Virus record (IMG/VR): IMGVR_UViG_3300045988_137032
Coordinates: 32,001-96,000 of that record
Length of the DNA: 64,000 nucleotides
Direction: 5' to 3' (one strand)
From: a virus
The position numbers and the translations under genes were made by a program. Under the pieces are notes generated by a model. That model did not search any database. It worked only from the letters and a program-made list of their open reading frames with translations, and was not told where the DNA came from. The first letter of the stretch is position 1; the number at the start of each line of letters is the position of its first letter. Below, piece after piece: positions 2,356 through 61,460 of the stretch.

Positions 2356-2375
2356 TTACACTAATGTTTTCATAG
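2356..2375 (-). promoter_or_regulatory. promoter-like motif class L (AAAACA-N6-TAA)
   Basis: The minus strand reads CTATGAAAACATTAGTGTAA. Intergenic, about 50 nt upstream of ATG 2310. Confidence 0.45.
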
Positions 2376-2443
2376 TAGTCTATTACCTGCACTACTGATT
2401 ATTCAGATTGTCGCTTACTTTACCTTAAAATTTTAAGTTCTTA

Positions 2444-4561
2444 ATGAAAGGACTGATCTTAATGATTCGATTAAATGAAGCTTCTCTTGAGAGAAGTGAT
2501 TTTATCAAGTTATGGAAAGATGAAATGACTCTCAATATGACCCGTATGAATCCGGAATGGGATCATGATGATATTGAGAAGGTTTTGGATAAAATGCTTC
2601 TGGAACAAATGATGATTCCGGAAGTAGAGCTAGATAATAACTATACAGGCGAGCATAAAGATGCTTCGTCATTGAGTGTTTTGGATTGGGTATTAAAGCG
2701 GAAACCAATTGTCGCTGGTAATGCCACATTTTATAAGAATCAATTGGAGGCTATTAACCCGATTGCAGACATGGTTAATGGCTTCCTTATTGAGCGTAAA
2801 GCTGTGAAAAAGAAGATGTTCCAAATTGAGGATGATCAATCCGATGAGTATAAAGATTTGGATCGTCTTCAGGGTAACGTGAAGCGTCTGGCAAACTCTT
2901 ACTATGGCGCTTCTGGTATGCCAAAGGCAGCATTCTATTCCAGATGGTCTGGCCCTGCAACAACAGGTACAGCACAGTCTGTTATTTCCACTACGGAAAC
3001 TTTGTTTGAAGGTTATCTCGTTGATAATTACAAGTTCGTTGATGATAATGAATGCTATCATTTTATCAATGAGATTCTTAAGCAAGACTATAAGATTCCG
3101 AAGTGGGTTAAACGGGTATCTGAAGGTGAGTTGGTTGAAAGACTCGTTGGAATGTTTTATGAAGATACCTATGTAACTAACTGGGGAGTTGCTGTAGCAG
3201 ATATGGTTCATAATCTTAGTGAAGATGATAGAACCAGAATCTATTACAAGAATAACTTCCTTGAATTTACGAGAGTACATGAAAAGGTTCTTGATCTGTA
3301 TGACGATCTTTTTGCAGCAGTTAAGAATCTTCCCTATGCAGAAACTTATGATGAAATTCCTGATGAATTCAAACCGATGTTCACGAAGGGTAAAGATCAT
3401 GATAAGGTAAAAGCATACAATGAATTCGTGAATACAGAATATTTCTTGAATCCGAATTCTCCTCCTGATTCTGTCCATGGAATTCTGGATGAATTGAAAG
3501 ATCTCTATATGAAATTCGTTTATATTCCGTTTATGTCCATTGACAGAATTCACAGACTGAAATACTTCATGCGGAAAACTGTTTGCATCGTTGATACAGA
3601 TTCTAATATTCTGAATATTGATGCTTGGGTAGATTTCTGTAATGAGTATATCCTTAAGAATTCTTCTTATGGTAGAAGTGCAGAGAATAATAAGTTCATT
3701 TGTGTTAATACTCTGACTTATTATATCACTGCTGCTGTCCAGCATACTCTGAATGAGTATGGACTTCATTCTTATATTCCGGATGATTATCGTCCTATTT
3801 TCAATATGAAGAATGAGTTCTACTTCCAGAAGCTGGTTGTTGGTAAGAAGAAAAAGCGTTATATCTCTGCAATTAAACTGCGTGAGGGTAACATGTTCCA
3901 TCCCTATAAACCTGACGTTAAAGGTTTCGATTATATGAAAGCTGGTACAGCAGAACTTGCTAAGGGCCGCTTTGATATGATCGTAAAGAAATATGTCCTT
4001 GAGTCTGAGGTTCCGGATGTATCGGCTATCTTGAGTGAACTTGCAGCGTTTGAGAATGATATTCGTGATTCTCTCCGTAGAGGTGAACTTACATATCTTT
4101 CTCTTGCATCTGCAAAAGATAAAGAAGCATATGCAAATCCGTATTCTCAGCAAGCATTCCGTGGAGCAATTGCATGGAACGCATTGTATCCTGCGGATGC
4201 AATTGAGTATCCGTCTAAGGTCAGTATTCTGAAGCTTACTACGTTTACAGAGAATGACTTGAAGGATTTGAATAAAACCTATCCTGAAGTATACGATTGT
4301 CTCATGAAGAATGTATTCCATTCTCCTGATAGAGAAATTGCAAAGAAGGGATTGCAAGTTCTTGCTATTCCTTCTGGTCATACCATTCCTGAATGGTGTC
4401 AGCCATTTATTGATGTCCAGACTGTTATCGGCAACATCATGGCTCCGTTTAAGGGAGTTCTTGATATCTTTGGTATCAATAATAGTACGGTTGGTAAGAC
4501 TTATAGTGCAGCTTCCGTAAATCGTAAAACTTCGAAGTTCTCTAATATAGTTAGATTCTAA
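2444..4561 (+). CDS. family-B DNA polymerase, polymerase-domain fragment (fingers/palm/thumb only)
   Basis: Motif B KRLANSYYGASG (KxxxNSxYG), motif C CIVDTDSNIL (DTDS) and KKKKRY (KKRY). No exonuclease motifs and no motif A (DxxSLYPS) in the 150 aa before motif B. Alternative start ATG 2462 has better SD spacing. Confidence 0.85.
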   Translation: MKGLILMIRLNEASLERSDFIKLWKDEMTLNMTRMNPEWDHDDIEKVLDKMLLEQMMIPEVELDNNYTGEHKDASSLSVLDWVLKRKPIVAGNATFYKNQLEAINPIADMVNGFLIERKAVKKKMFQIEDDQSDEYKDLDRLQGNVKRLANSYYGASGMPKAAFYSRWSGPATTGTAQSVISTTETLFEGYLVDNYKFVDDNECYHFINEILKQDYKIPKWVKRVSEGELVERLVGMFYEDTYVTNWGVAVADMVHNLSEDDRTRIYYKNNFLEFTRVHEKVLDLYDDLFAAVKNLPYAETYDEIPDEFKPMFTKGKDHDKVKAYNEFVNTEYFLNPNSPPDSVHGILDELKDLYMKFVYIPFMSIDRIHRLKYFMRKTVCIVDTDSNILNIDAWVDFCNEYILKNSSYGRSAENNKFICVNTLTYYITAAVQHTLNEYGLHSYIPDDYRPIFNMKNEFYFQKLVVGKKKKRYISAIKLREGNMFHPYKPDVKGFDYMKAGTAELAKGRFDMIVKKYVLESEVPDVSAILSELAAFENDIRDSLRRGELTYLSLASAKDKEAYANPYSQQAFRGAIAWNALYPADAIEYPSKVSILKLTTFTENDLKDLNKTYPEVYDCLMKNVFHSPDREIAKKGLQVLAIPSGHTIPEWCQPFIDVQTVIGNIMAPFKGVLDIFGINNSTVGKTYSAASVNRKTSKFSNIVRF

Positions 4562-4607
4562 TGATAACTATTAGCTATTTTATATAAAAAGAAAGGATTG
4601 GCACAAT

Positions 4608-5360
4608 ATGAGCGATTATGGTTACACCCCGAATGATATTTCTTATGAGGAGTTTCTTTCGGAAGCTCCTCTGGATTTAATCAAGGAAAGCATCAGAACC
4701 CAATTCTCAGATCCAATCGATTATAATAAAAAGGACTATATCGCATCCTTCATCAACATGTACAAGTACTCTGAGGAGAAAGCAAGTGCATTTGAAGATG
4801 AGGATACCGATAGCATCCATTATCTCCGTGATAATTTCTATGCATTCATGATGTCCATGTTTTCGAAGAAGCTTGGTGTTGGAATCAATGATTTCGATGA
4901 GATGAGCATGGATGATCAGGATGAAATGATTCATTACGTTTACAGATTCTTCCTGAGTAATTGCAAGAAGAATTTCACAAATATCGTAATGAATCACATC
5001 GAAGAAAATCATGATGTTTATGCATCTATTGCAGATGATGAAGAAGATGTCACTAAGAATTCCATGAAGCGATATGTGGATGACCCTGCTGATGTATATG
5101 TGCTGAGTCATCTTCGTGAAATCATTCAAGAAGCTTTGAATGGCGACATGGATGTTGACGAATTCCTTGATCAGTGTGATAGCACAGAAGATCCTTGTCT
5201 TGAAACTGCTTTCGTCAGAAATAAGTATGAAGACTTTACTCTGACTGGTAATTTCGTTCCTCTGTATTTTGATCTCACTGATTACAAAGACTTCTTAACA
5301 GAAGTTGAGTCTAAAGTACGACATAAAATCCTTAAGAAGTATAATAAAAAGAAGGATTGA
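4608..5360 (+). CDS. hypothetical acidic protein (250 aa)
   Basis: AAAGGA SD 10 nt before the ATG. Follows the polymerase gene after a 46-nt gap. Confidence 0.7.
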   Translation: MSDYGYTPNDISYEEFLSEAPLDLIKESIRTQFSDPIDYNKKDYIASFINMYKYSEEKASAFEDEDTDSIHYLRDNFYAFMMSMFSKKLGVGINDFDEMSMDDQDEMIHYVYRFFLSNCKKNFTNIVMNHIEENHDVYASIADDEEDVTKNSMKRYVDDPADVYVLSHLREIIQEALNGDMDVDEFLDQCDSTEDPCLETAFVRNKYEDFTLTGNFVPLYFDLTDYKDFLTEVESKVRHKILKKYNKKKD

Positions 5361-5441
5361 TTTTTTGTCATATTCGAGGTTACATGTACGTAATTTCGAG
5401 ACCACAACACTTGAAACACATTTCAAAAGGAGATTTTAATT

Positions 5442-6149
5442 ATGGCTTATAACAACAATAATCGTCGTAGTGTTTCCACTAACATCAAGACTCTTTACGG
5501 AGACACTGCATCTATGAGTCTGTCTTACTGGAATGATATGATTTCCATTAAGATGAATCCTTGCACTGGTACCAACGCAGATGGCGTTCGTCAGTACGAT
5601 CGTAACCGTAGTTTCTCCACTGCTCTGTCCATTCAGAAGTCCAAGGCTCTCGTTGACCTGATCGAGGAGAATATTCTGCCTCTGATTAAGAGTGTCTCTG
5701 AGGGAAATAAGCTTGAGCATCCTGTTAACGTGGCAGTTCAGTGTGGTGTTAAGAAGGCTATGGTCATTATTCAGTACAGCAATGATGATCGTGGCAAGCC
5801 GTTCGTTTGCCTGTACGGTTACACCTCCAGCAACGATGACGGTACTTGCGAGCAGCAGAATATGTACGCTTACAAGTTTGGTAAGACCAACGTCATCAAG
5901 AACTACAATCCGAACACTGGTGAGGGTGATGTAGTTCAGGTGGAGTCTGAGTTTGAGTTCTTCTACAACGTCCTGAAGAATCAGGCCAGTGCATTTGGTG
6001 CAGCCAGCCACTCTAACAGTTACTTCACTTCTTGGAGCAATGGTGGTGACAATGGTAACCACGGCAATGCGCCTTCTAACTACGGCAACAATTTCCCCAC
6101 CAGCAATGGCGGTAATTCCGACACGTCTGGCGACGATATGCCCTTCTAA
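5442..6149 (+). CDS. putative single-stranded DNA-binding protein
   Basis: A Gly/Asn/Ser-rich tail ends in the acidic tip SGDDMPF, which resembles the bacterial SSB C-terminal DDDIPF. Lies in the replication module. AAGGAG SD. C-ending codon bias. Confidence 0.5.
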   Translation: MAYNNNNRRSVSTNIKTLYGDTASMSLSYWNDMISIKMNPCTGTNADGVRQYDRNRSFSTALSIQKSKALVDLIEENILPLIKSVSEGNKLEHPVNVAVQCGVKKAMVIIQYSNDDRGKPFVCLYGYTSSNDDGTCEQQNMYAYKFGKTNVIKNYNPNTGEGDVVQVESEFEFFYNVLKNQASAFGAASHSNSYFTSWSNGGDNGNHGNAPSNYGNNFPTSNGGNSDTSGDDMPF

Positions 6150-6233: not shown

Positions 6234-6989
6234 ATGGCGGAAGGAGCACAATCAGTATTTTTAAATTCTGATTATGTCGTAATCCAGTATATTGATATGA
6301 TTAAATCACCATATCTCGTACTACTTGATATTATCAGAACGAATCCGAATCTGAGAGAAGTCCTTAAGATTGAAGAGATTGAAACTTTCGATACTGCTGC
6401 TCTTTATGAGTGGTATGTAAATAGAAAGCATCAGAATTTCTTCATTGATTTAAACCGTGATCGTGAGAAGTATCCAGATGAATTCATGGATGGTTTACTT
6501 GCAGATCAAATGTGCCTGGCAAAAGAATTCTATACGAATACCAATATGCTCTGTACTGAATTCATGCTCAAATTCTTAAAGAGTAAGAATGATATGGTGA
6601 AAGATGTCATTATCTATTTCCCATTCAATACTCCTTATGCAAAAGAAGATTTGAGAGAGAATATCGGACATAGCTTTACTTTCATGAGTGACTTTGATGA
6701 GATTTGTAAGAAGTGTGGTAGTAACTGCACTTACTTCTTATCTGATATTGATCTCATTAATCGTATGGAGAAAAATAAAGTACTTGAATTTTCTTCTGTT
6801 ATTCTTCCGATTGAATATCGGTATAATAAGAAGAATATGAATGACTTCAAAATTGACTTCGATAAGAAGTTGAAAGATGTTGTATTTAAGCTCTCTTTCA
6901 TGAGAGCATGTACTGTTGAAGATCATGACAATGGATCTTTTGATAGAACGGATGTGAATCTGAATACCTATCAGAATCCAGTCATGTAA
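6234..6989 (+). CDS. hypothetical protein (251 aa)
   Basis: The ORF starts at 6225, but ATG 6234 sits 9 nt after GAAAGGA. Confidence 0.65.
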   Translation: MAEGAQSVFLNSDYVVIQYIDMIKSPYLVLLDIIRTNPNLREVLKIEEIETFDTAALYEWYVNRKHQNFFIDLNRDREKYPDEFMDGLLADQMCLAKEFYTNTNMLCTEFMLKFLKSKNDMVKDVIIYFPFNTPYAKEDLRENIGHSFTFMSDFDEICKKCGSNCTYFLSDIDLINRMEKNKVLEFSSVILPIEYRYNKKNMNDFKIDFDKKLKDVVFKLSFMRACTVEDHDNGSFDRTDVNLNTYQNPVM

Positions 6990-7026
6990 CACAACCATAA
7001 TCAAAAACCATAGGAGGTATTACCAA

Positions 7027-9114
7027 ATGAATCGAGAAGATATGGATTTTGGCAGAGGTGATCTGAAGTTTGCACCTCTGATCAATGTGTACTCCAAGGA
7101 AGAATTCGATAAGCGAGTCAAGAAGGTATTCGACGTAATCTGGGATAAGCTTGTTATGTCGTTCGGCCCTGCTGGTGCTGGTACTTTCATTGTCATTCCT
7201 TCCTCTACTCAGTCTACCTTCTTTAACACGAAGGATGGCTATACCATCATGAAGAATCTTCAGTTCAATACGAAGATTGATCATACCATCAAGAATATGA
7301 TGTCGACTATCTGTGATCGACTGAACTTCACTGTTGGTGATGGTACTACTACCGCAGTTGTCGCAACTGGCGGTGTTTACAACTCCTATATGGAAATGAA
7401 GAAGAATCCTGATAGTGAACTGAATCGGGTTCTTCCTCGTAAGATCATGTCTATGATGGATACCGTTAAGAATGATATTATCAATGAGCTGAATAGCCAT
7501 GCAGTTTCTATTCAGTCTGATAACCAAACTACCCTTGCAGAGAATATCCGCAAGGTCGTATACGTATCTTCTAACGGTAATGAAGAAATCACGGATATGA
7601 TTTCTAAGCTTTACTATAAGCTTCAGTATCCGGCAATCTCCGTGGCTAACTCTAAGGATGGTTCTACCCATGCTTATACCGTGGATGGCTACAAGATTGA
7701 TGTTTCCCTTACTGATCAGTCTTATATCAACAGCGATGACAATACCATGATTTCTGGTGGTATGGACTACATCATCTTCGATAATAAGGTCGACCAGCAG
7801 ATTTACGATAAGATTCTGAAGCCTCTGTGTGATGCATCTAAGCAGCGTGGTCGTAAACTTGCATGTATTGCACCTTGGTACGATGATGTTGCTCTCGGTG
7901 GTCCGATTCGTCGTGATCTTCTGAATGAGCTGAAGCAAACCGGATCTATTTCTCTGGTTCTGCTTGTCTGCAATAAGACAAATGCATATGCCCGTACTCT
8001 GTTGAGTGACTTTGCTATGCTGCTGAATACTCCCATCATTACTCGTGTAGTGAAGGATCAGATTCTGGAAGAGCTGGATAAGAATCCCGATATCTATTCT
8101 CAGTTTGATATGGATAATCGTAATATTGAGGGTATCAATATTGCAGTGAAGAATCCTATTGCTGGTTTGGACAGTAATCAGCTGGAACTCCGTCTCACTC
8201 AGTATAATAAGGAGACTACTCCTGCTCAGCTGATCTTCAATCGTGACAAGAAGAATCTTATTCGTGTTGGTTATTGCGATAAGGCAGTTATCGGCATGAA
8301 AGAATCTACTTTCTCTGGATTTTTCTATGATCCGGACATGTATGAGAAGACTCTGTCAGTTGCAAAGGCTGAGCTTGCTGATGAGAAGGCAAAGCTTCAG
8401 ATGATTGGTTCTTTCAGCCTTGGTGTTGTTGAGAAGCAGCAGCGTATCAATGCACTTGGTCTGAAGACTGGTGTCATTGAAGTTGGTGCAGCTTCTCAGA
8501 TGTCTCAGGGTTATTTGAAGGACTCTGTGGATGATGCTGTTAAGGCAGCGGCTTCTGCATTCAATAATGGTGTAGTTCTTGGATGTAATTGCAGTCTGAT
8601 TGATTCCATTAAGAATCTTATTGATAAGCAGCCTGCTTCTAAGGACGGTATTGTATCCGATGAAAATAAGCTGTATTATGAGATTCTCAATATGCTGTAT
8701 AACGGTTACGTTACCGTGTATCAGACTATTCTCAATAGTATCTATCCTGAGGGTGCTGTTATCAACATGGATTTCTACACTAAGAATGCTGAGTTTGCGA
8801 AGAAGGAAGGCACTTCTCATATCATCGCATATATCGACGATAAGACTCATCGTACCATTTCTGTGAATCGTCGAGTTGCTGATCGTATCTTCAAAAAGAT
8901 GAGTAAGCAGGCTTTGGATGATACTCCGGATACGGTTCCTCTGATCTGGTTTGTGCTTGAGTATTCTCGTGTTACCAATACGGTGCTTGATGTAACTACC
9001 GGTGAATTCACTTCGGATGTTATCAACTCTACTGAAACTGATCGTGAAGTTCTCAATGCAACTGTCGATCTTCTTAGCCTTCTGATTACTGGTAATCAGC
9101 TGGTTCTCTGCTAA
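7027..9114 (+). CDS. GroEL/Cpn60-like chaperonin
   Basis: FGPAGAG..TKDGYTIMKNLQF..VGDGTTTAVVATGG (the GDGTTT ATP-binding signature). C-terminal GVIEVGAASQ..VDDAVKAAASAFNNGVVLG parallels GroEL VGAATEVE..EDALHATRAAVEEGVV. AGGAGG SD. Confidence 0.85.
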   Translation: MNREDMDFGRGDLKFAPLINVYSKEEFDKRVKKVFDVIWDKLVMSFGPAGAGTFIVIPSSTQSTFFNTKDGYTIMKNLQFNTKIDHTIKNMMSTICDRLNFTVGDGTTTAVVATGGVYNSYMEMKKNPDSELNRVLPRKIMSMMDTVKNDIINELNSHAVSIQSDNQTTLAENIRKVVYVSSNGNEEITDMISKLYYKLQYPAISVANSKDGSTHAYTVDGYKIDVSLTDQSYINSDDNTMISGGMDYIIFDNKVDQQIYDKILKPLCDASKQRGRKLACIAPWYDDVALGGPIRRDLLNELKQTGSISLVLLVCNKTNAYARTLLSDFAMLLNTPIITRVVKDQILEELDKNPDIYSQFDMDNRNIEGINIAVKNPIAGLDSNQLELRLTQYNKETTPAQLIFNRDKKNLIRVGYCDKAVIGMKESTFSGFFYDPDMYEKTLSVAKAELADEKAKLQMIGSFSLGVVEKQQRINALGLKTGVIEVGAASQMSQGYLKDSVDDAVKAAASAFNNGVVLGCNCSLIDSIKNLIDKQPASKDGIVSDENKLYYEILNMLYNGYVTVYQTILNSIYPEGAVINMDFYTKNAEFAKKEGTSHIIAYIDDKTHRTISVNRRVADRIFKKMSKQALDDTPDTVPLIWFVLEYSRVTNTVLDVTTGEFTSDVINSTETDREVLNATVDLLSLLITGNQLVLC

Positions 9115-9121
9115 TGCATTA

Positions 9122-9169
9122 AAAGAGCAGGTATTCATGAACAAAATGAATACCTGCTCTTTATTTTTA
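9122..9169 (+). terminator. rho-independent terminator
   Basis: A 17-bp stem, 9122-9138 / 9146-9162, followed by ATTTTTAT. Confidence 0.8.
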
Positions 9170-9247
9170 TAAAGGCAATTACAACCGAATAAGTTAATTA
9201 TTGTTATCTCGTCTATATTTTTATCCCTAGAAAGGTGATGAGACAAT

Positions 9248-10126
9248 ATGGAATCCTTAAGTGTATCTACGCAAACTTTGGAGCAATTTTTGGAAGCTCC
9301 TTTTTATCAGAAAGACACACAGCAGAAACACCTTATGTATGAATCCCGATATCAAGCGTATCGGAAAGCAAATCGTATTCGTATTAAATCAGTTGTCGAA
9401 GTAGATCATAACTATTTTATTCTTTTTAATGTCCCATCCGAAACTGCTAAAGAGAAATTTGACTATGATGTCGTAATTCAATTTACCCCACCGGATAATG
9501 ATCATGCAATGAGCCCTTCTTTAAGACAGTACTGGGTGCAGTTCTTCTCGAATAGTCCTGGATTTGTCTATAAGTATGCAGCTCTTTATAAACTTCAAGG
9601 TTACTTGATTGAAACTTTACAGATGAAGTTTGCTCCAGGTACTCTGGATACACTTCCTGATAAAGCTAATTCAAATTACACCCTGTATTTCGATTCCAGT
9701 ATCTATTATGCATGCCGATTCATGATTGATAATAAGCTCACTTATTTCAATAAGATCGCTTTGACTTTCTGGAAACGAAATAAGTTTTCTCAGTTCGTTG
9801 ATAATATTAGAGATTTCCAATCTTCACAAGCTGCCCGTAATGGAGGCGGTACTGTAGAGTTGGACTCTAAGATCAAAACTGAGATCAATAAAGATCGTAA
9901 GCTTTCCAATGTGGAACGTCATAAGTTAGCTTCTCGTAGTAAAGTATATTCGGATCAGATAAAAAAGAAAGATAAGCTTGAGAAGAAAGTTGCTAAGATG
10001 AGCACGGACAAAGATGCTCCTCCCAGTATCGTACGTCCTGTCAAGTCTACTTCTCAAGTTCATACAACAACGAAAGTGAATCCTACCAAAAAGAAAACAG
10101 CATCCAAATCAACAAGGCGAAAATGA
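9248..10126 (+). CDS. hypothetical protein with Lys/Thr-rich basic C-terminal tail (292 aa)
   Basis: AAAGG SD. Clean ORF. Confidence 0.7.
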   Translation: MESLSVSTQTLEQFLEAPFYQKDTQQKHLMYESRYQAYRKANRIRIKSVVEVDHNYFILFNVPSETAKEKFDYDVVIQFTPPDNDHAMSPSLRQYWVQFFSNSPGFVYKYAALYKLQGYLIETLQMKFAPGTLDTLPDKANSNYTLYFDSSIYYACRFMIDNKLTYFNKIALTFWKRNKFSQFVDNIRDFQSSQAARNGGGTVELDSKIKTEINKDRKLSNVERHKLASRSKVYSDQIKKKDKLEKKVAKMSTDKDAPPSIVRPVKSTSQVHTTTKVNPTKKKTASKSTRRK

Positions 10127-10212
10127 TTTTTTACTAACACGCTCAGTGAATGATATGTTATATACTTGGGCACGTTAGTATAACTGAATTTTTTGAGAGG
10201 AGAGACCATTCA

Positions 10213-11907
10213 ATGAACACAGACAGCAAGACAACTGAAACGGCCGTAAGTGCGACTTCGTTACGACCGAAGTTCCCGAATATCCCTCGGTCTGAGTGGA
10301 CCGAGAAAACCGCACCCAAAGCACCAATTACTCAGTGGAAACCTAAGCGCGATAAAAGTGATCTTTATTCGGAAGCAGATGGAAGAGTATTTATCTTCCA
10401 TTTTGAGAAGTTTGACTTACCTGATAAGGTAGCAACTTACGATCGATTCTTCGTGAATAAGTTGTCTTACGGTAGTCAGCTTCCTACAATCTGCTCCTAT
10501 ATCAATTACTTCATTAAGAAGTATGATTTGGATCATGAAATTCCCACAGCATATCTGAAGCTCAAGTTCTCCATTGATAAACTGGTCGATGAGGATACTG
10601 GACTGAACGTCTATAATGAAGAAACGATGGATCAGTTCATTAGTCTCATCTATGAAGTGATGTTCACCCCGACAGTTGTTGACAAGATCAAACGATTGGT
10701 TGAAGATAACTATCTGGATGACATTGAGTCTACGGATAATTCTCGTTATCTGAAAGATTCTAAGAAGCATCTTGAAAGTCTTGAATTCAGAAATATCCAT
10801 GTGAAAGTGATGCTTCGCATTAGTTTTGGTATGAAGCTGATTGCCCCCGTTATGTGCCACTTCTTCTACGTGAACCATATGAAACCGGAGCGAGACAGTG
10901 ACGTTATCTATAACTTCTATGCCAGACTCTTTGATCTGTTCAATGAGCCGGGTATGAGCCTTTATAACAAACTCTTCGTTTATGTCAAAGCGAAGGTTCT
11001 GGAGAATAAGTCTCATAATACCGTGATCTTTGAGCAGCGTGAGATTCTCGGCTGGGATGGTTATGTCGTCATTAATTCCTTCCTTCGTAAGGTTCTGATC
11101 AGTGAAACGATCATCAAGTATACGTTCAGTGAGCACTATAGCCCGAAGACGAAGAAATACCAAGAGAATATCATCGGCTTCAACAAAACGATTATCAAAT
11201 ATCAGTTGATGTACTTCTTGAAAGAGCAGTATGCGAAGAACATGACTGAAGTAACATCCACAAAGAACACCGACGGATTGTCCGGACAGGATAAGATGGA
11301 GATGAACCTCACCAAGATTGATGAGGGCATGGTTGTTATTGCGGATGCAAACATCTCTTCCGAAATCGAACGCTTGAGAAGAGAAATCGATTTCGACATC
11401 ACTGATGATGAAATCAATTATTATGTGAAGAACCATAGTCCGTCTCCTCTGCAAGTCCAGATGGTATATTCCTACTGGGCAAAGGACTTTGGTGTCTATC
11501 GCAATATGAGCCTCGCAAGTCGTGTCGAATACACGATTCTTATGCTTATCCTGAAAAAGCGTTTGCTTATCAATGCTGGTAATTCTGAGGATAGTGTCAC
11601 AAATACTTGTGCACTGGCTTACATCATTTCCGGTAACGTGAATGGTACCGTGAATACCAGACAGATTCGCAAGAGTCGCTTTGTCGATAAGGTTGAGAAG
11701 AGTGCTCTCTACAAAGATTTGTGTGAGAATAAGTATAGTCAGCTCATTTCGATTCGTCCTGAATACATCAAAGAAATCCTCTCGAAGTTTATCAATACTT
11801 CCTTTACCTATGTGGTTTACGAAGCTCCTGATCTGTTAGGTCAACCTATTGAATACGATGAGGATACCATTTCTGATGAGCTGCTCTTCTTCCTCAAGAG
11901 CATTTAA
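10213..11907 (+). CDS. hypothetical protein (564 aa)
   Basis: The ORF starts at 10150, but ATG 10213 follows GAGAGGAGAG SD. Confidence 0.7.
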   Translation: MNTDSKTTETAVSATSLRPKFPNIPRSEWTEKTAPKAPITQWKPKRDKSDLYSEADGRVFIFHFEKFDLPDKVATYDRFFVNKLSYGSQLPTICSYINYFIKKYDLDHEIPTAYLKLKFSIDKLVDEDTGLNVYNEETMDQFISLIYEVMFTPTVVDKIKRLVEDNYLDDIESTDNSRYLKDSKKHLESLEFRNIHVKVMLRISFGMKLIAPVMCHFFYVNHMKPERDSDVIYNFYARLFDLFNEPGMSLYNKLFVYVKAKVLENKSHNTVIFEQREILGWDGYVVINSFLRKVLISETIIKYTFSEHYSPKTKKYQENIIGFNKTIIKYQLMYFLKEQYAKNMTEVTSTKNTDGLSGQDKMEMNLTKIDEGMVVIADANISSEIERLRREIDFDITDDEINYYVKNHSPSPLQVQMVYSYWAKDFGVYRNMSLASRVEYTILMLILKKRLLINAGNSEDSVTNTCALAYIISGNVNGTVNTRQIRKSRFVDKVEKSALYKDLCENKYSQLISIRPEYIKEILSKFINTSFTYVVYEAPDLLGQPIEYDEDTISDELLFFLKSI

Positions 11908-13916: not shown

Positions 13917-13959
13917 ATAAGGAGTATGTGTACTGTGTTACACATACTCCTTATTTTTT
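13917..13959 (+). terminator. rho-independent terminator
   Basis: A 16-bp stem, 13917-13932 / 13939-13954, then a T6 run. Confidence 0.85.
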
Positions 13960-13971
13960 GTATTGATACTG

Positions 13972-13991
13972 CCTAAAAACAAACTCTTAAG
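13972..13991 (+). promoter_or_regulatory. promoter-like motif class L
   Basis: CCTAAAAACAAACTCTTAAG. Differs at 1 of 20 positions from the copy at 61441. Lies 35 nt before ATG 14024. Confidence 0.55.
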
Positions 13992-49992: not shown

Positions 49993-50046
49993 AGGACAGT
50001 ATCGTAATTTGACACTATATCATAGAGAAAGGAATGATGAGTTACA

Positions 50047-52571: not shown

Positions 52572-52891
52572 TCGTCATCCTCATCGTCAAGATCAGCATC
52601 GTCATCATCGGATTCATCACCGCAGATGTTCATCACATCATCGATGGACAGATTCTTCTTAGACTGAAGGATCTTCTCAACCTCCTGATCATCACCATCC
52701 GTAACGGGCAGCTTATCGATCAGGGCTTCGATATCAGCATCGGAAATATCAACGTCTTCCATCATGGTCTCAGGAACCAGAGCACAAAGCGCAGCTTCGG
52801 TTGATTCATCTTCCATCATAGACTCGATGTACAGGCGATCACGCTCAATACTAGCACGCTCTTTACGAACGGACTTAAATGCTTCGATCAT
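52568..52891 (-). CDS. highly acidic small protein (107 aa)
   Basis: The ORF extends to 52933, but ATG 52891 follows AAAGGA. C-terminal DESDDDDADLDDEDDE. Confidence 0.65.
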   Translation of the reverse strand: MIEAFKSVRKERASIERDRLYIESMMEDESTEAALCALVPETMMEDVDISDADIEALIDKLPVTDGDDQEVEKILQSKKNLSIDDVMNICGDESDDDDADLDDEDDE

Positions 52892-52955: not shown

Positions 52956-52975
52956 CTTAGCTTATTGTTTTTAGA
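52956..52975 (-). promoter_or_regulatory. promoter-like motif class L
   Basis: The minus strand reads TCTAAAAACAATAAGCTAAG, matching the copy at 35159 at 18 of 20 positions. Confidence 0.55.
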
Positions 52976-54301: not shown

Positions 54302-54703
54302 TTACAGATCGATCGATACGGGATCCATATCCATCTTAGCTGGAGACTTCTGAACTACGCCGTCCTTCTTAATCGTCTTGACGATATCGACATAGATCTT
54401 GTCGTTCTCATCAATATAATTATCGTCCGGCATATCTTCAACGCCCATAACCAGATCACCACGGGGCTTATCCGCATCCGGAGCAAAGTTATTCTTTCTC
54501 CGATAATTCTTCAGAGTAAGCCGCTTCTTCTGCTTACGGTTTTCAGGATTGTGTTCATACACAATACGGCCATTGATCAGAAGCTTGTAAATGGTATTCA
54601 CATCCATAACCACAATAGTGAGGATAGGACCCTGAATACCACCGAGTTCGCTAAAACTACCAGTGCTAGGGACAGTGACCAGTTTAGTATAAACCATAGC
54701 CAT
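54302..54703 (-). CDS. hypothetical protein, ELGGIxGPILT paralogue 2 (133 aa)
   Basis: ELGGIQGPILT, VYEHNPENR, NNFAP. AAAGGAG SD. C-ending codon bias. Confidence 0.7.
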   Translation of the reverse strand: MAMVYTKLVTVPSTGSFSELGGIQGPILTIVVMDVNTIYKLLINGRIVYEHNPENRKQKKRLTLKNYRRKNNFAPDADKPRGDLVMGVEDMPDDNYIDENDKIYVDIVKTIKKDGVVQKSPAKMDMDPVSIDL

Positions 54704-54734: not shown

Positions 54735-54753
54735 TTATAGACTTGTTTCAAGG
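54735..54753 (-). promoter_or_regulatory. promoter-like motif class L (GAAACA variant)
   Basis: The minus strand reads CCTTGAAACAAGTCTATAA, about 35 nt upstream of ATG 54703. Confidence 0.4.
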
Positions 54754-54792: not shown

Positions 54793-56553
54793 TCAGAAAT
54801 CTGGTAATTCTACACTATTTGGATCAAAGCGATCATATTCGCTTCCATCACCAAGTTGATTCATTTCACTATCCTTTTTGGATTTCCCTACCGTAGGACG
54901 AGGTCTTGCATTTCTGGAAGACGGAGGAGTATCCGTAAACGAATTCGCCAAAGACAACTTACTGACGGGTTCTGGCATATAGATATCATCAATAAGACGA
55001 CTTCCTGTTTCATCGTAAGGATGAGTAAAGTAATCAATTTCACTAACAGCGACATGATACTTGGGATCTTTCTTTGTGTTGGTGGAGCGATAACGACGCT
55101 TCAAAAGTTTGAATGTCAGATACTTATCACTCGTATCAGATCTCGTTTCTGTATTGACCACAATGGTAACGTCGCAGTTCTCTTGGATTTCCCAAGCGCC
55201 TGCAATACCATCACGTCCAACCAGACGAGTAACATCGACTCTGTTAGACTGCAATGCGCCATCCACGATAGATGCTGCATTACGATTCAACTGCTGTGCA
55301 GTAATCACTGCAATGTCAAGTTCTTTCGCAATCGTTTTAAGTTCGTTGGTCACATTCTTTAATTCTTCTTTTTCTGTATCCGCTTTCTCAGAGGGACGAA
55401 TTCTCTTCAAGTAGTCGAGGATCAAAGTAACAACTTCTCTTCCATCATCAAATTCATCCTGAATAATCGTACGAAGATCATTCGTATCAATACTTCTATT
55501 CGGATAATACTTAATGACAATATCGATGTTGTTTTTATCAGTCAGAGTCATTTCACCTTCATCCTTGAGCATCTTTACAACCTGCTCAGGACTATAATTA
55601 CGAATATCGGTACTTGATACACGCATAGCAAAAATACGTTCGATGGTCTCATCAATATCATTCTCCATAGTGATGAGCAATACACAAGGAATCTTACCTG
55701 GATGCCGTGCTTTGACATCGGGATTGTATTTTTTGATATCAAGTGCAGATTTCAAAAGAATCTGACTTTTACCACCACCAGGAAGTGCCAGGAAGCAGTA
55801 AAGACGCTTGCTCTGGAAACCAGGTGCAAGCATGTAGTTTAAGAACTGGATACCAGTTCTAAACACACGGTTTTTATCACTTAAATGCGTAACAGCATCG
55901 CTGACAGCATTTGCAAAATTCTCTGTATCAAGAGAGAAAGTATCATTCTGATTCGTTGTATCGGATTTACGCTTGATATTAATAAGCTCTGTTGCTAATC
56001 TGTAGATGATATTCACACACTTTTTGTAGGAGTGATTATCTCCACCTTCCAAATCCATGGAATCCATTGCTTCGAATAACTTGTCACGGAAATACACGAT
56101 GTATCCATAACGGACTCTATCCTGAATACCTTCCAAAAGATATTTGATATCATCCGTGTCCAACTTCACCATGTTATTGGGAATATCATTCAGAAGTTCT
56201 GGAATGAATGGATTATTGTCTTCACATGCATTTCGTTCTGCAACATGCTCTTTCAATACGGTAAACCCGCTTAACTTATACTCAAACTTTCCCTCCAGTG
56301 TATAATAGATAAGTTTCACACGAGCCATTAACTCGTCATTCTTCTTATACACATCATAATCAATCATTTGAAAAAGTCTATACGTAGTCGAAAGAGCTTT
56401 TCGAGTACGTAAGATCGACGGGGTATAAATAAATGAGATGATGGAATTCAAAACATCCATACTCATTTTTATTTTAACGCGCTTCATAGTTACACCGTAG
56501 ATGGTTGTCGTTTCATCTGAGGTGTAAGATTTTTTAGTTTTCTTCGTTGCCAT
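54793..56553 (-). CDS. replicative DNA helicase (DnaB/gp41-like)
   Basis: Walker A LALPGGGKSQILL, Walker B-like CVLLITMEND, ITAQQLNR. ATG 56553 follows AGGAGG (the ORF extends to 56589). Confidence 0.75.
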   Translation of the reverse strand: MATKKTKKSYTSDETTTIYGVTMKRVKIKMSMDVLNSIISFIYTPSILRTRKALSTTYRLFQMIDYDVYKKNDELMARVKLIYYTLEGKFEYKLSGFTVLKEHVAERNACEDNNPFIPELLNDIPNNMVKLDTDDIKYLLEGIQDRVRYGYIVYFRDKLFEAMDSMDLEGGDNHSYKKCVNIIYRLATELINIKRKSDTTNQNDTFSLDTENFANAVSDAVTHLSDKNRVFRTGIQFLNYMLAPGFQSKRLYCFLALPGGGKSQILLKSALDIKKYNPDVKARHPGKIPCVLLITMENDIDETIERIFAMRVSSTDIRNYSPEQVVKMLKDEGEMTLTDKNNIDIVIKYYPNRSIDTNDLRTIIQDEFDDGREVVTLILDYLKRIRPSEKADTEKEELKNVTNELKTIAKELDIAVITAQQLNRNAASIVDGALQSNRVDVTRLVGRDGIAGAWEIQENCDVTIVVNTETRSDTSDKYLTFKLLKRRYRSTNTKKDPKYHVAVSEIDYFTHPYDETGSRLIDDIYMPEPVSKLSLANSFTDTPPSSRNARPRPTVGKSKKDSEMNQLGDGSEYDRFDPNSVELPDF

Positions 56554-56747
56554 GTGAGAGTCCCTCCTAGTTGAATATTTGGGTCGCACTAAGATAATAT
56601 GGAAAACTTTAAGGGAAAATAAGACACACTCTATATACTTTTAAGGAGGGTCTATTAAATCTATCAAAGTGTTACCCGGGGTGTAATAAACCAAAAGTAT
56701 AGTTACTGTATTTACTTCACGTATACTTTTGGTTTATTTTGTATCAG

Positions 56748-56963
56748 TCAGGGAATCACAATACCAATTGCACTCAATGCAGTCTTGATTGCAGTGATGG
56801 TGGTATCATGCTCTTGAAGAATTTTGTAAATCTCTTCTAAGCATGTGACAACTTTCTTTGAATATGTTTCACCAACAGGCTGACCGCTTTTTGAAATCGT
56901 CATTTCCATTACTTTAAGCTCTTGGATCTTGGCATATAAAAGCATCATACTGCCTACGCTCAT
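56748..56963 (-). CDS. hypothetical small protein (71 aa)
   Basis: AAGGAG SD. Confidence 0.55.
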   Translation of the reverse strand: MSVGSMMLLYAKIQELKVMEMTISKSGQPVGETYSKKVVTCLEEIYKILQEHDTTITAIKTALSAIGIVIP

Positions 56964-57000: not shown

Positions 57001-57020
57001 TTACAGGATTGTTTTCTGGG
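57001..57020 (-). promoter_or_regulatory. promoter-like motif class L
   Basis: The minus strand reads CCCAGAAAACAATCCTGTAA, about 40 nt upstream of ATG 56963. Confidence 0.4.
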
Positions 57021-57136
57021 CTATTTTATCCGGAGGGGGTGGATAATGAAATTCATTGAGTTTCAATATCCCGGTGACAGTATCCTAACCGATGGTTTTG
57101 AAAGATAAACCTTATAAGAAAGGAATGGTCCTTATT

Positions 57137-60100
57137 ATGAAATCAGTTAAGAAACGTGATAACCGGATAGTGGAATTCGACCGGGAAAAAATCGTCTCTG
57201 CAATCCAGAGAGCATTTATTGAGGTCGATGGTACACTATCCGATTCAGCCAAAAGTATCGCGGAATCTACTGCGACAAAAGTTGCCCTGATCCCTGAAGA
57301 TATGTCTGTGGAACAGATTCAGGATCAGGTGATCTATTCCCTTATGGATACTTCTCGGAAAGATGTTGCAAAAGCATATACGGAGTATCGGTTCAAACAC
57401 AATTTAGCTCGGGATTTCCGTAACACCACCGATCAAGCTATCATGGACCTGCTTGATCACAAGAACGAAGAAATCAATGGTGAGAATTCCAATAAGGATC
57501 CCGAGATCGTTTCTGTTCAGCGTGATTATATCGCTGGTATTACTTCTAAGGATATTACAAAGCGTATTCTGCTTGACGAAGATATTGTGAAAGCCGATGA
57601 AGCTGGTATTATCCATTTCCATGACTCTGACTATTTTGCACAGAATGTGCTTACCAACTGCTCTCTGTGCAATCTGGAGGATATGCTCCAGAATGGTACT
57701 GTCATTAACGGTACAAAAATCGATAAGCCTCACCGTTTTATCACAGCGTCGACTATTGCAACTCAGATCATCACTGCTGTGACATCTTCTCAGTATGGTG
57801 GTATCTCTATTACTCTGACACATCTTGCACCGTTTGTTCGTGAGTCCTATAATCGGTATCTTAGTAAATACCGTAGCTGGGGATTTGATGAGAAGAAAGC
57901 TGCCAAGTATGCTGATCTGGATACTCGTAAGGAAGTTGAAGACGGCTGCCAGACTTTCATCTATCAGGTGAATTCCATGTCTACAACCAATGGCCAGGCT
58001 CCGTTCCTGACTGTCTTTATGTATATCAATGAGACAGAGGAATATCGTGATGAACTGGTAATGCTGATTGAAGAATTCCTCCGTCAGCGTATTCAGGGTA
58101 TGAAGAATGAGCAGGGTGTATGGATTACTCCTGCATTCCCGAAACTCATTTATGTCCTCGATGAGGATAATATTAAGCCTGGCACAAAGTACTGGGACAC
58201 TACAGTTTTAGCTGCTCAATGTACTGCCAAACGCATGGTTCCTGACTATATTTCAGCAAAAGTGATGAAACAGCTGAAGGGGGACGTGTGGCCGTGCATG
58301 GGTTGCTTTGATGCAAAAGAGGTTGTTTCATATCAATTAAATAACGAGTCTCACGTGAGTACTTTTGAGGAAATGTGGAATTCGTTTAAAGGTAGATTTG
58401 ATATGGTATCTCAGGAAACTGGTGTTGCTGGTGATACCTACATGAATCTTACTGGAGTTAAGATTTACGACCATGTGAATGGATGGACTGATTGCAAGCG
58501 TCTTATCCATAATCATCACGATAAGATGCTTCGTGTCGTCTTTACGAATGGTCGTGTAGTTGAAGTCACTCCGAATCATCCGTTCACAGTTGAAACGAAT
58601 TCCAAGACTGAATCTATCGTCTATGCTGAGAAACTCAATGTCGGTGATACGATCAAGATCGATAGTGAGTTCAAGGCATTCAACGAAGATGATCTGAAGG
58701 TATATAATTCTCCGAATGATGAGAAGCCTGCTATTGCAGCAGAGAATTTCGTTATGAATAAGATTCGTGATGATGAACTTCTCACTCTGGATCTTATCTT
58801 CAATTACAAGAAGGATACTCGCCGTGAATTCCTGTATGGTCTGATTCAGACTATGCGTGACGATCTTGAAGTCGTTAAGAAGGAAGAGACTGATCCTCGC
58901 GATGAGAATCGTTCCTTCATCGATGACTATAATAAGACAAAGGTCATCGGCATTCATTATCTTACTAAGGATCGCGCACTGAAGATCATGATGCTTGCTC
59001 AAAGCGTTGATGTTCATGCGGATATTCATGTGGAAGATGAAGAGTCTCGTCATTATCAGGATCTATATAAAGTACAGATTGCTCCTACATACGAACTCAT
59101 TAAGCTCTGCACGAATGATCAGGATTCCTTCTGGGGAGTCTTCAGTGATTCCGTTATGAATGAACTGGAGAACTCTGAGCTGTTCCATCAGGAATATGCT
59201 TGTGTGGAATCCGTCACTCGTCGTTACGAACTTCGTGAAAGCTATGATGTTACGACTGCCTCTGAGCACTTCAGTGCATCCGGCATTTATACTCATAACT
59301 GCCGTAGTTTCCTTACTCCGTATAAAGATCCGAAAACTGGTAAGGGAAAGTATTATGGTAGATTCAACTGTGGTGTCGTAACCATTTCTCTCCCTGATCT
59401 TGCTTTCTCTTCCGGTGGAGACTACGATAAATTCTGGCAGCTCTTTGAAGAGCGTACTGAGCTTTGCCATAGAGCATTGCGTGCACGTATTGATCGTATC
59501 AAGGATACATCTGTTAACGTCGCTCCCATTCTTTGGCGTCATGGCGCATTTGCACGACTTCCTATGGATGCTAAGATCGGCGATATCATGTTTAATGGAT
59601 ATTCTACTATCTCACTTGGATATGCAGGTCTGTATGAGTGTGTCAAGTATATGACTGGTCATTCTCATATGGATAAGGGTATTGGTACTGAATTTGGCCT
59701 TAAGGTCATGCAAGCTTTGAATGATAAGTGTAATCAGTGGAAGACAGCAGAGCATATCGATTATTCTCTGTATGGTACCCCGATTGAGAACACCACTTAC
59801 AAGTTTGCCCGTTGCCTTAAGAAGCGTTTTGGTAATGATATCTTCGTCAAGCTTGATGGTAAAGACCGTGATTACATCACCAATAGCTACCACACAGCAG
59901 TCTTTGAAAAGATCAATCCGTTTGATAAGCTGATTCAGGAAGCTGAATTCCAGAAGCTTTCTCCGGGCGGCGCTATCAGTTATATTGAATGCTCTGATTT
60001 GACTCATAATATTCCTGCTGTTCTTCAGGTCATGCAGTGTATTTATGATAACATCATGTATGCTGAGCTCAATATCAAGTCTGATTATTGCATGTGCTGT

Positions 60101-60215
60101 GGATTTGATGGGGAGATCAAAGTTATTGACGACGGTGGTAAGTTGGTTTGGGAATGCCCGAACTGCGGCAACCGTGATCAGCATAAAATGAGCGTCGCTC
60201 GACGCACTTGTGGAT
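57137..60215 (+). CDS. nrdD: anaerobic ribonucleoside-triphosphate reductase NrdD, exon 1 (contains an in-frame intein)
   Basis: ATP-cone KKRDNRIVEFDREKI. C-terminal Zn ribbon CMCCG..CPNCG. The glycyl-radical motif is cut after RRTCG. The track ORF runs to 60232 (LNYSI*), reading into the intron. Confidence 0.85.
58304..59299 (+). mobile_element. intein (332 aa) in NrdD
   Basis: Starts with Cys (CFDAKEVV). Block B is GRVVEVTPNHPF (TxxH). Ends ..YDVTTASEHFSASGIYTHN, followed by extein Cys. Removal gives VWPCMG-CRSFLTPY (conserved NrdD MGCRSFL). A degenerate LAGLIDADG-like FLYGLIQTMRDD lies in the middle. Confidence 0.85.
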
Positions 60216-60527
60216 TGAATTATTCAATATAGTCCACGTTAAACCTGTTAAACTGCGGGAAGTTCCTTAGAGCTCTAGGTTACCAAGTATAGTTTGGTGA
60301 CAGCTATATGGCTGATTTTAACAGAATCGGATATGGTAAAAAGACTTAGAGATTGGATAATCATCGCATCGAAACTTCTGCGAGTAGAAATACTCGTATG
60401 GATTTATTCCACTTAGGGAAGGACGTTCAACGACTATAATACGGGCGCGCTACTTAGTGACTTCACTAAGCAAGTATGGTATAGTCTACTCCCGTACTTA
60501 AATATCGGGAAACCGAGGGTACAAAGG
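60216..60527 (+). mobile_element. group I self-splicing intron (312 nt, no ORF) in nrdD
   Basis: P1 is GTGGAT (60210-60215) / GTCCAC (60232-60237), with a U-G wobble at the 5' splice site. P10 is AATAT (60226-60230) / exon-2 ATATT (60528-60532). The terminal G is at 60527. P-like ACTGCGGGAAG is at 60252-60262. R-like GTTCAACGACTATA (60425-60438) pairs with S-like ATAGTC (60481-60486) as P7. Confidence 0.85.
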
Positions 60528-60637: not shown

Positions 60638-60638
60638 T

Positions 60639-61319
60639 ATGCGATATGCATCTATCCGAGAAATGGATATTAGCAATGGTTATGGTGTTGGTGTATCTTT
60701 CTTTACTCAAGGATGCCACTTCCACTGTAAGAATTGCTTTAATCAACAGACATGGGATTTCAATGGTGGTAAAGAATACACCAATGAAACGGAAGTAAAG
60801 ATCCGTTCCCTTGTTGATAGACCTTATATCCATAGATTCTCCGTTTTAGGTGGAGAACCTCTGGAATGGTGTAATATCTACGATTTGACAAATCTTCTCC
60901 TTCACATCAAAGAAGATGCTGATCTTACTTATAAGAAAATGGATGTCTGGCTTTATACCGGATATTCCCTTACCGATATTATTTGGAAAGCACTTTTACA
61001 GTTTAATCCACCACAGAAGCCGAAATCCAACTATACTACGGATGATAAAGAAGCTCAGATTATGAGTATGCTGTATTTCGTAGATCATTTGGTTGACGGT
61101 CAGTATGAAGAAGATAAGAAAGATTTTCATTTGAAATTCTGTGGAAGCAGCAACCAGAGAATTATTGATATGAAGAAAACCCATTATAATTATATGAATG
61201 ACGAAGTGATGTGCTACGTTCGTGGAAATCATAATTCAATGAATGCAGCTCAAATCCAGAATGTTATCGATTATATCAACAAGGAAGTAATCGTAACTAT
61301 TCCACAGGAATCGTTGTGA
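60639..61319 (+). CDS. nrdG: anaerobic RNR activating protein NrdG (radical SAM)
   Basis: FTQGCHFHCKNCFN (CxxxCxxC). Starts 1 nt after the nrdD stop. Confidence 0.9.
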   Translation: MRYASIREMDISNGYGVGVSFFTQGCHFHCKNCFNQQTWDFNGGKEYTNETEVKIRSLVDRPYIHRFSVLGGEPLEWCNIYDLTNLLLHIKEDADLTYKKMDVWLYTGYSLTDIIWKALLQFNPPQKPKSNYTTDDKEAQIMSMLYFVDHLVDGQYEEDKKDFHLKFCGSSNQRIIDMKKTHYNYMNDEVMCYVRGNHNSMNAAQIQNVIDYINKEVIVTIPQESL

Positions 61320-61367
61320 TGGGTAATGGTTTTTTCTATTCATAAAACTTTCTCCTTGTTGTAATAC

Positions 61368-61418
61368 AAGAATCCGAGCTAGTAATGACCGCACATCATA
61401 CTAGCTCGGATTCTTCAT
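61368..61418 (+). terminator. rho-independent terminator
   Basis: A 17-bp stem, 61368-61384 / 61399-61415. The T-run is weak. Confidence 0.65.
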
Positions 61419-61440
61419 TGCCAGGATCATAGAAATACCA

Positions 61441-61460
61441 CCTGAAAACAAACTCTTAAG
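61441..61460 (+). promoter_or_regulatory. promoter-like motif class L
   Basis: CCTGAAAACAAACTCTTAAG, 43 nt before ATG 61501. Confidence 0.55.

Follow-up and report, generated by a model that had tools for sequence, protein, structure and literature searches.

A probable late-promoter motif of the AR9 type in a phage of an uncultured human-gut clade

The 64 kb of viral DNA analysed in this study (hereafter the window; IMG/VR record IMGVR_UViG_3300045988_137032, positions 32,001 to 96,000; G+C 39.8%) carries an intergenic motif, AACA followed by six nucleotides and TAA, that an initial annotation had reported as a promoter-like class L. We consider it very probable that this motif is the late promoter of the phage's own non-virion RNA polymerase (nvRNAP), acting in a two-polymerase programme like that of Bacillus phage AR9 and written in a variant of the AR9 promoter grammar. 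The motif is real, and its spacing, its orientation, its conservation, the presence of a gene for the presumed reader subunit and the agreement with AR9 orthologues are all observed here. The core of the grammar is [A>T,G]ACA-N6-TAA, in which the A at +2 is nearly fixed and G starts are unused.

The class-L sites and their statistics

All twelve sites of the initial annotation were found at the coordinates and on the strands that it gave, each consisting of AACA, exactly six nucleotides and TA(A), and the two pairs that it had quoted as nearly identical are indeed so. Aligned on AACA, the sites give the consensus C(-17)-Y-T-R-A-A-A-A-C-A-N6-T-A-A-(G), and their predicted +1 A lies 32-98 nt from the called start codons. 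The site at 2356-2375 (-), with AACA at 2368-2365 and the predicted +1 A at 2357, lies 46 nt before the gene 1657-2310 (-), scores 17.1 bits with a position weight matrix (PWM) and is kept in the relatives with 88% and 70% identity that are described below. The other minus-strand sites are 47108-47127, 33 nt before the endonuclease gene 46302-47075 (-), a homologue of AR9 g233 (20.4 bits); 52956-52975, 66 nt before the gene 52568-52891 (-) (23.1 bits); 54735-54753, a GAAACA form 32 nt before the gene 54302-54703 (-), which is the weakest of the twelve (16.7 bits, 9.1 in the leave-one-out test); and 57001-57020, 38 nt before the gene 56748-56963 (-), with the top score of 25.3 bits. On the plus strand, 13972-13991 (20.5 bits) lies 34 nt before the gene 14024-14860 and 20 nt past the terminator hairpin 13919-13960, and 23245-23263 (24.1 bits) lies 60 nt before a gene for a 1001-aa protein (23323-26328), with a hairpin of dG -31 ending 10 nt upstream. 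The site at 29465-29484 (24.0 bits) precedes the virion-protein genes 29535-30893 and 30914-31936, which are homologues of AR9 g214/g215. The sites at 32736-32756 (21.3 bits), 35159-35179 (24.4 bits) and 37797-37815 (19.8 bits) lie 98 nt before the gene 32852-34123, 49 nt before the gene 35227-36423 and 44 nt before the genes 37859-38671 and 38694-41438, respectively. The last site, 61441-61460 (23.0 bits), lies 42 nt before the beta-N gene of the virion RNA polymerase (vRNAP), a homologue of AR9 g189 that runs from 61501 to the end of the window.

The extended motif AAACA-N6-TAA occurs 14 times in the whole window compared with 3.66 expected from dinucleotide shuffles (none of 100 reached 14) and 13 times in intergenic DNA compared with 1.22 expected from shuffles of intergenic DNA (none of 1000). 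In a scan of the spacer, which counted tRNAs and missed open reading frames (ORFs) as genes, AACA-N6-TA gave 17 sense sites at most 200 nt from a gene or tRNA, 3 more distant sense sites, no antisense site and 11 genic sites; spacers of 3-5 and 7-9 nt gave only 0-3 sense sites, so that the peak at six nucleotides is the single one. The intergenic and strand bias that the initial annotation had proposed as a check is present in the window: the odds ratio of AACA-N6-TA for intergenic versus genic DNA is 12.7 (p=2e-11), and in co-directional intergenic regions 12 sites are sense and none is antisense (p=2.4e-4). With the PWM, the twelve sites score 16.7-25.3 bits (9.1-22.1 when left out one at a time) and the next match in the window scores 11.9, while block shuffles give 0.40 chance matches per window at 14.9 bits or more.

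The count of the initial annotation proved incomplete. It had missed AACA-type sites at 6988 (+), 16989 (-), 23008 (+), 27373 (+) and 56662-56673 (-), and it had under-counted the weaker variants, of which nine [T/G]ACA sites are present. Two of the variants that it named, at 9175 and 47145, fit TACA-N6-TAAG; the third, 26368-26388, has GA after the spacer and does not. Its statement that the sites often follow a terminator holds for six of 16 sites (13978, 23251, 27373, 29471, 32742 and 61447), which lie 10-30 nt downstream of hairpins with dG of -20 kcal/mol or lower.

The presumed reader and the orthologues in AR9

According to the published work on AR9, the late consensus of this phage is 5'-A(-11)ACA-(6N)-T/U-A/G(+1) (PMC5312081; PMC7598289; PMC5449584). 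The motif is found at 94 of 118 non-early transcription starts, with its last base as the start, and it marks primary 5' ends in differential RNA sequencing (dRNA-seq) that were TEX-tested and verified by primer extension (PMC5312081); the consensus was also confirmed in vitro (PMC5449584; PMC7598289). The five-subunit nvRNAP of AR9 recognizes the promoter element within the template strand, where it needs uracil at positions -11 and -10, substitutions at either position abolish transcription, and the DNase I footprints of the enzyme reach about -20 (PMC5449584). The sigma-like specificity subunit is gp226. Its pockets are made by the 2.1bis helix (residues 205-214), in which V206 keeps thymine out at -10 and Y210 stacks on -9G; with the mutation V206G, thymine is accepted (PMC9209446). 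The initial annotation had given the consensus as AACA-N6-TW, which is essentially right except that the last base is A or G and not W.

The window encodes a subunit of this type. The gene 10213-11907 (+), whose product is the presumed reader of class L, matches AR9 g226 in tblastn (E=1e-16), and the product is 22% identical to gp226 (BLASTP). A profile of the 16-member family matches the structure 7S01_A of the Protein Data Bank (PDB) with E=3.5e-25 over residues 14-463 of 464. The AlphaFold model of the protein (pLDDT 77) has only three significant Foldseek matches, which are 7S01_A (E=1.3e-14), 7UM0_A (3.6e-13) and gp68 of phage phiKZ (2.1e-4). The gene order GroEL-like, g227-like and gp226-like (7027-11907, +) is that of AR9 (g228-g227-g226) and of Bacillus phage BpSp, despite a protein identity of 22-39%. 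The window also contains a gene for the C-terminal part of the nvRNAP beta' subunit (17155-19221, +; homologue of AR9 g154, E=5e-46) and a gene for vRNAP beta'N (50047-51594, +; orthologue of AR9 g145). These gp226 and g154 homologues, the synteny, the AR9/PBS1 group as the nearest known phages and the six-nucleotide peak found in AR9 and in 16 relatives support the link that the initial annotation had drawn between split polymerase genes and an AR9-like grammar.

Late transcription start sites have been mapped in AR9 for g007, g145, g189, g214, g232, g233 and a tRNA gene (Table S3), and the window orthologues of all of these carry class-L or variant sites. The pair g233/g232 has the same divergent arrangement of mapped late promoters in AR9 as the window has at 47120 (-) and 47152 (+). 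Among the genes served in the window are virion homologues (g214/g215), a baseplate homologue (g232), the vRNAP genes beta-N and beta'N, and tRNAs; others are a helicase, NrdD and many unannotated genes. The claim that mostly virion genes are served can be verified only in part, through homologues in AR9: two served genes are g214/g215 homologues, a third is the gene for a vRNAP subunit and a fourth that for a baseplate-wedge homologue, and most of the others are unannotated. For most proteins served by class-L sites, scans with Pfam, PHROG and NCBIfam gave nothing.

Conservation in related phages

Megablast of 12 kb of the window against 50,697 phage records found no near-identical DNA; therefore, the phage has no close cultured relative. 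By vRNAP beta'N (50047-51594), the phage is nearest to the AR9/PBS1 group and to further jumbo phages with uracil DNA, at 31-37% identity. Human gut metagenomes are the source of close and distant relatives, on contigs of up to ~280 kb, and this uncultured human-gut clade of jumbo phages comprises 335 gp226-like clusters. Because a search with the protein of 35227-36423 alone gave one locus that was too close (91% identity), relatives were located by an alignment of the gp226 family. The distant comparison set has 16 non-redundant loci from gut and other metagenomes with 41-54% gp226 identity (L009 and L016-L035). Footprints were drawn from one relative with 88% and one with 70% identity; the former was uninformative, its intergenic DNA being 87-94% identical, and the latter was used instead.

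The same pipeline applied to AR9 as a positive control gave 72 sense AACA-N6-TA sites compared with 7-36 at other spacers. In the loci of the 16 distant relatives, the corresponding numbers are 55 and 12-27, and the excess at six nucleotides is seen individually in 16 of 16. Inside the genes of these relatives, AACA-N6-TAA is scarce, with 22 sense and 2 antisense occurrences compared with 39-73 and 17-60 at other spacers. This antisense depletion is about 10-fold, whereas in AR9 it is mild (22 vs 25-56). The genic depletion points to selection against chance promoters in both orientations, as is expected of a promoter at the level of DNA and not of an element of the mRNA.

Single sites show the same pattern of fixed and free positions. 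Before the 14024 orthologue, the window and the 88% and 70% genomes keep AACA and TTAAG while the spacer sequence varies, and the terminator stem beside this site has three different sequences with the pairing kept. At 17098, position -11 is T, G and T in the three genomes, and ACA and TAA are fixed.

Similarities to and differences from known systems

The window shares with AR9 the ACA core, the 6-nt spacer, T-A at -1/+1 and sense sites 20-100 nt before genes, as well as a gp226-type subunit, split nvRNAP/vRNAP genes and an AT-rich early motif. The differences lie at defined positions, and the initial annotation had not noted those at -11, +1 and +2. At -11, AR9 has strictly A, a defining feature that the window lacks, as it is also enriched for T and G at the six-nucleotide spacing: [T/G]ACA-N6-TAA peaks there in the window, with 9 sense and 3 genic sites, and in the relatives (36 sense vs 3-14 at other spacers) but not in AR9 (4 sense). 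AR9 starts at A or G, but at +1 the window always has A, and AACA-N6-TG occurs once in intergenic DNA vs 28 times in genes. The dinucleotide after the T is AT, AA, AG, GT or GA in AR9 and mostly AA in the window (14 of 20 sites), and A at +2 is found at 93% of window sites and 85% of those in relatives compared with 32% in AR9. The lineage of the window has about 6 extra bits at -19..-12 (C-17 at 73%, then Y, T, R, A, A); this C-rich block at -18..-15 with A at -13/-12 has no counterpart in AR9 or in the relatives with 41-54% identity. The start codon lies a median of 46 nt from +1 in the window and, by the same method, 32.5 nt in AR9.

Phage phiKZ resembles this system in its multisubunit nvRNAP with a sigma-like fifth subunit, gp68, which the model of the window protein matches (8QUE_B, E=2e-4), although this relationship is far weaker in sequence than that to gp226. 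The late element of phiKZ is different, a 4-nt TATG overlapping the start (T(-3)ATG(+1)), and it lacks any AACA element of the -10 kind. The genome of phiKZ has thymine, and its gp68 is needed for assembly of the core. Bacterial sigma-70 and ECF factors are similar in that a sigma2-like domain reads a short single-stranded element located some 10 nt before the start, but they read the non-template strand and another motif.

A candidate early class is also present. The motif TTA-TATATTATA(T/C) occurs in intergenic DNA at 1503 (-), 17025 (+), 29118 (+), 44972 (-), 51975 (-), 53023 (+) and 53320 (+), and it resembles the early consensus of AR9, AAATATATATTAT-(6N)-G, which the virion polymerase reads. 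All eight occurrences of TATATTAT in the window are intergenic, one of them 122 nt before 17155. At 17025, ahead of the nvRNAP beta' C-terminal gene, the block TTATATATTATA is invariant in the window and in the 88% and 70% relatives, and the AR9 orthologue of this gene, g154, has an early promoter. The window has the two features of an AR9-like two-polymerase scheme, namely split vRNAP/nvRNAP genes and an AT-rich early class before an nvRNAP gene.

Proposed mechanism and alternative explanations

From the comparison with AR9, we infer the polymerase that reads the motif, the recognition in the template strand, the exact start site and the temporal class. The AT-rich motif before the nvRNAP gene (TTATATATTATA) would probably be read by the injected virion polymerase. 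The nvRNAP core would then bind the gp226-type sigma-like subunit (10213-11907), and the holoenzyme would read positions -11 to -8 (AACA in the non-template strand, 3'-TTGT/UUGU-5' in the template) in the template strand. RNA would begin six nucleotides beyond this element, with the A of the triplet T-A-A, giving 5' untranslated regions of about 30-100 nt. Class-L sites would head units for virion proteins, subunits of the virion polymerase, tRNAs and some replication genes, often directly after the terminator hairpin of the previous unit. Overall, this would be the two-polymerase early/late cascade of AR9.

Several observations weigh against this interpretation. The identity of the window subunit to gp226 of AR9 is just ~22%, Y210 of AR9 aligns with an invariant Q, and the window contains no nvRNAP beta-N subunit, which in AR9 contributes one half of the -10 pocket. 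The helicase, NrdD and GroEL-like genes are not obviously late; 'late' may here mean nvRNAP-dependent and include middle or continuously expressed genes. Finally, the bare core occurs 19 times vs 11.6 in composition-matched intergenic shuffles, which is about 1.6-fold. This enrichment is modest; the signal rests on the extended motif, the spacing and the orientation. The bare core would also be what one expected of a compositional artefact of AT-rich intergenic DNA, but the 13 extended motifs against 1.2 expected, the peak at six nucleotides only, the orientation of 12 to 0, the gap in PWM scores and the conservation speak against chance. The spacer and orientation controls refute such an artefact, whose probability we regard as practically nil.

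Another polymerase, either the injected virion enzyme or the host RNA polymerase with a host or phage sigma factor, might read class L, and some served genes, such as those for the helicase and NrdD, would suit earlier expression. However, the early role is filled by the AT-rich motif that resembles the AR9 vRNAP consensus AAATATATATTAT and precedes the nvRNAP gene, and class-L sites stand before genes for vRNAP subunits and virion proteins, whose products are necessarily made late. Class L has no -35/-10-like hexamers, and matches to the sigma-70-type pattern TTGACA-N16-18-TATAAT are at the level of chance (55 vs 56.1 +/- 8.5 in shuffles, over 22-42 kb). In AR9, the nvRNAP with gp226 reads exactly this core at this spacing, and a gene for this subunit is present in the window. 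We consider a different reader to be very unlikely. We give a marginally smaller chance to a motif acting in RNA, as a site of mRNA processing or cleavage or as an element of the 5' leader. The sense orientation in the untranslated region upstream of genes is as a leader element would have it, but the strongest depletion in the genes of relatives is on the antisense strand (2 vs 17-60), which an mRNA element does not explain; the six spacer nucleotides vary freely without covariation; the sites commonly follow terminator hairpins, where read-through RNA would be scarce; and in AR9 the same motif lies at the primary 5' ends already described. The motif, or the C-rich block at -18..-15, might instead bind a separate regulator of late genes, and the absence of a counterpart of this block in AR9 and in the 41-54% relatives would suit the site of an add-on factor. 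The AR9 nvRNAP footprint to about -20 allows either reading, but AACA-N6-TAA is found across the clade and equals the element that the polymerase reads in AR9, and no candidate regulator was identified. A regulator site is, in our opinion, as improbable as a foreign polymerase, and we retain the nvRNAP promoter as the interpretation of class L.

Uracil or thymine in the phage DNA

According to Iyer et al. (PMC7824862), uracil genomes need the absence of thymidylate synthase and dUTPase. The gene 15770-16312 (-) encodes a dUTPase, with 67 bits for the Pfam dUTPase family, 91-100 bits for the NCBIfam dut models and the motifs AGYDF, GIVDADY and GGIGSTG; it is closest to the dUTPases of Clostridium, Lactococcus and Listeria phages. 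The reading of this gene as a dCTP deaminase was rejected at 18.7 bits vs 91-100. No homologue of the window dUTPase was found in AR9, and uracil-DNA phages of the AR9 type, unlike the window, are without a dUTPase. The window showed no positive marker of uracil DNA, neither Ugi nor a dCMP/dCTP deaminase nor a dTMP phosphatase. Judging by gene content, the DNA of this phage probably holds thymine and not uracil; the dUTPase argues for this without proving it.

If the DNA contains thymine, the template-strand pockets must differ from those of AR9. In the model of the window subunit, the segment TVIFE (270-274) forms a short helix between two long helices in place of the 2.1bis helix of AR9. It was aligned with V205-V206-I207-W208-T209, with V206 and I207 matched, in an alignment that at 22% identity is uncertain for each residue. 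In 16 members of the clade, the residue that corresponds to V206 is V, P, I, T, A, L or M and is thus not conserved. Its variability, together with the relaxed -11 and the richer consensus, would fit remodelled pockets. We tentatively suggest, as a possibility that we hold with less than even confidence, that the clade uses template-strand recognition of the gp226 type on thymine DNA, with the -11/-10 pockets remodelled, Q standing in place of Y210, and with extra sequence (+2 A, A at -13/-12 and, in the lineage of the window, the C-rich block) taking over the self/non-self discrimination for which AR9 has uracil. If true, the engineered V206G enzyme would have a natural counterpart.

Additional sites and features of the window

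Two core AACA-N6-TA sites serve tRNAs and are nearly identical, AACAAATAG[G/T]TA. One, 16989-17000 (-), lies 24 nt before the cluster Leu, Thr, Ser and Gln (16964-16427, -), and its AACA...TA is unchanged in both the 88% and the 70% relative; the dUTPase gene, downstream of this cluster, is probably co-transcribed from it. The other, 23008-23019 (+), lies 34 nt before tRNA-Ile 23054-23147. The cluster 16427-16964 (-) consists of Gln-TTG, Ser-TGA, Thr-TGT and Leu-GAG and is kept in the 88% and 70% relatives, while tRNA-Ile (anticodon TAT; 23054-23147, +) is separate from it and unusually long (94 nt). Scans for tRNAs and Rfam families gave only these five tRNAs and no other known RNA family in the window. 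An AACA-N6-TAA site at 27373-27384 (+) lies 84 nt before the gene 27469-28539 and 20 nt past the hairpin 27309-27350, without the C-rich upstream block. We tentatively add a weak core site at 6988-6999 (+; 6.6 bits), 27 nt before the GroEL-like gene 7027-9114, which is present in the 88% relative, the relative L009 (53% identity) having a stronger AAAACA-N6-TAA ahead of GroEL; and a core site at 56662-56673 (-), 108 nt before the DnaB-like helicase gene 54793-56553 (-), a homologue of AR9 g007.

The variant sites with TACA-N6-TAA are 5381-5393 (+), 48 nt before the gene 5442-6149 and kept in the 88% and 70% relatives; 9180-9192 (+), before the g227-like and gp226-like genes, which the initial annotation had given as 9175-9193; 17098-17110 (+), 44 nt before the nvRNAP beta' C-terminal gene and downstream of the early-like motif 17025; 20790-20802 (-), 118 nt before the gene 20201-20671 (-); 44915-44927 (-), 99 nt before the gene 44024-44815 (-), with the early-like motif 44972 upstream; and 47152-47164 (+; 11.9 bits; 47145-47165 in the initial annotation), back-to-back with the class-L site 47108-47127 (-) and 41 nt before the baseplate-wedge homologue 47206-47619 (AR9 g232). 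Those with GACA-N6-TAA are 21371-21383 (+), 49995-50007 (+) and 57076-57088 (+), which lie 41 nt before the gene 21425-22141, 39 nt before the vRNAP beta'N gene 50047-51594 (AR9 g145) and 48 nt before NrdD (57137-60232), respectively. Three of the nine share their upstream region with another promoter-type site, namely 17098 and 44915 with early-like motifs and 21371 with a distant core AACA match; the 'continuously expressed' genes of AR9 likewise have more than one promoter-type site. Among 41 genes with at least 60 nt of non-coding DNA upstream, an AACA-type site was found for 15, a variant site for 9, an early-like motif for 6 and none of these for 14, and some of the latter reflect small ORFs that were not called.

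Other matches were set aside. PWM matches at 10-12 bits (20292, 27441 and 20908) are at the level of chance, with block shuffles giving 2.7 at 12 bits or more. The core matches at 20933 (-) and at the palindrome 21165/21166 were not assigned, as the nearest called gene is over 240 nt away and the flanking A's are missing. The AAAACA-N6-TAA at 28978 (+) is ambiguous, since it overlaps the stop codon of 28730-28987 and has no upstream block. The palindrome itself, AACAGCGTGTT(A) at 21165-21177, is perfect, fits the core motif on both strands and sits in a 753-nt gap (20672-21424) with conserved variant sites at 20711 (+) and 20790 (-); this gap may contain an RNA gene or short ORFs that were not called.

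Very stable hairpins (dG -26 to -31 kcal/mol) without a clear T-run lie just upstream of class-L sites at 22956-22997, 23200-23245, 27309-27350 and 61370-61417 (+), and a clear T-run is present in the hairpins 13919-13966, 29395-29443 and 32665-32714. The hairpins without one suggest that terminators of the phage polymerase may not need a U-tract. None of the three motif classes immediately precedes the DNA polymerase gene (2462; upstream region 2311-2461) or the gp226-like gene (10213; upstream region 10127-10212). Their AR9 orthologues, g152 and g226, have early promoters; a further promoter class or co-transcription may account for them.

The window encodes, in addition to the split multisubunit RNA polymerase genes, a family-B DNA polymerase, a GroEL-like protein, a DnaB-like helicase, NrdD, NrdG and homologues of AR9 virion proteins. 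The top intergenic word is AGAAAGGA, and Shine-Dalgarno sites are strong; together with the dUTPase, which is like those of Firmicutes phages, this suggests a Firmicutes host. NrdD (57137-60232, +) has 1031 aa, and its homology is split into residues 2-392 and 719-1026. The ~325 aa between them may represent an intein or the insertion of a homing endonuclease; similar interruptions are found in the RNA polymerase genes of AR9.

Conclusions

To our knowledge, AR9 is the only phage in which this grammar and its uracil-dependent reading in the template strand have been demonstrated, and for its relative phiR1-37 a late consensus reportedly could not be found. The dUTPase of the window raises the question of whether promoter reading in the template strand works without uracil. 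The parts of the grammar that can change are position -11, +1, +2 and the upstream additions. The ACA-N6-TA core survives across a large gut clade at a specificity-subunit identity of ~22%, and it provides a ready rule for annotating transcription units in the genomes of this clade.

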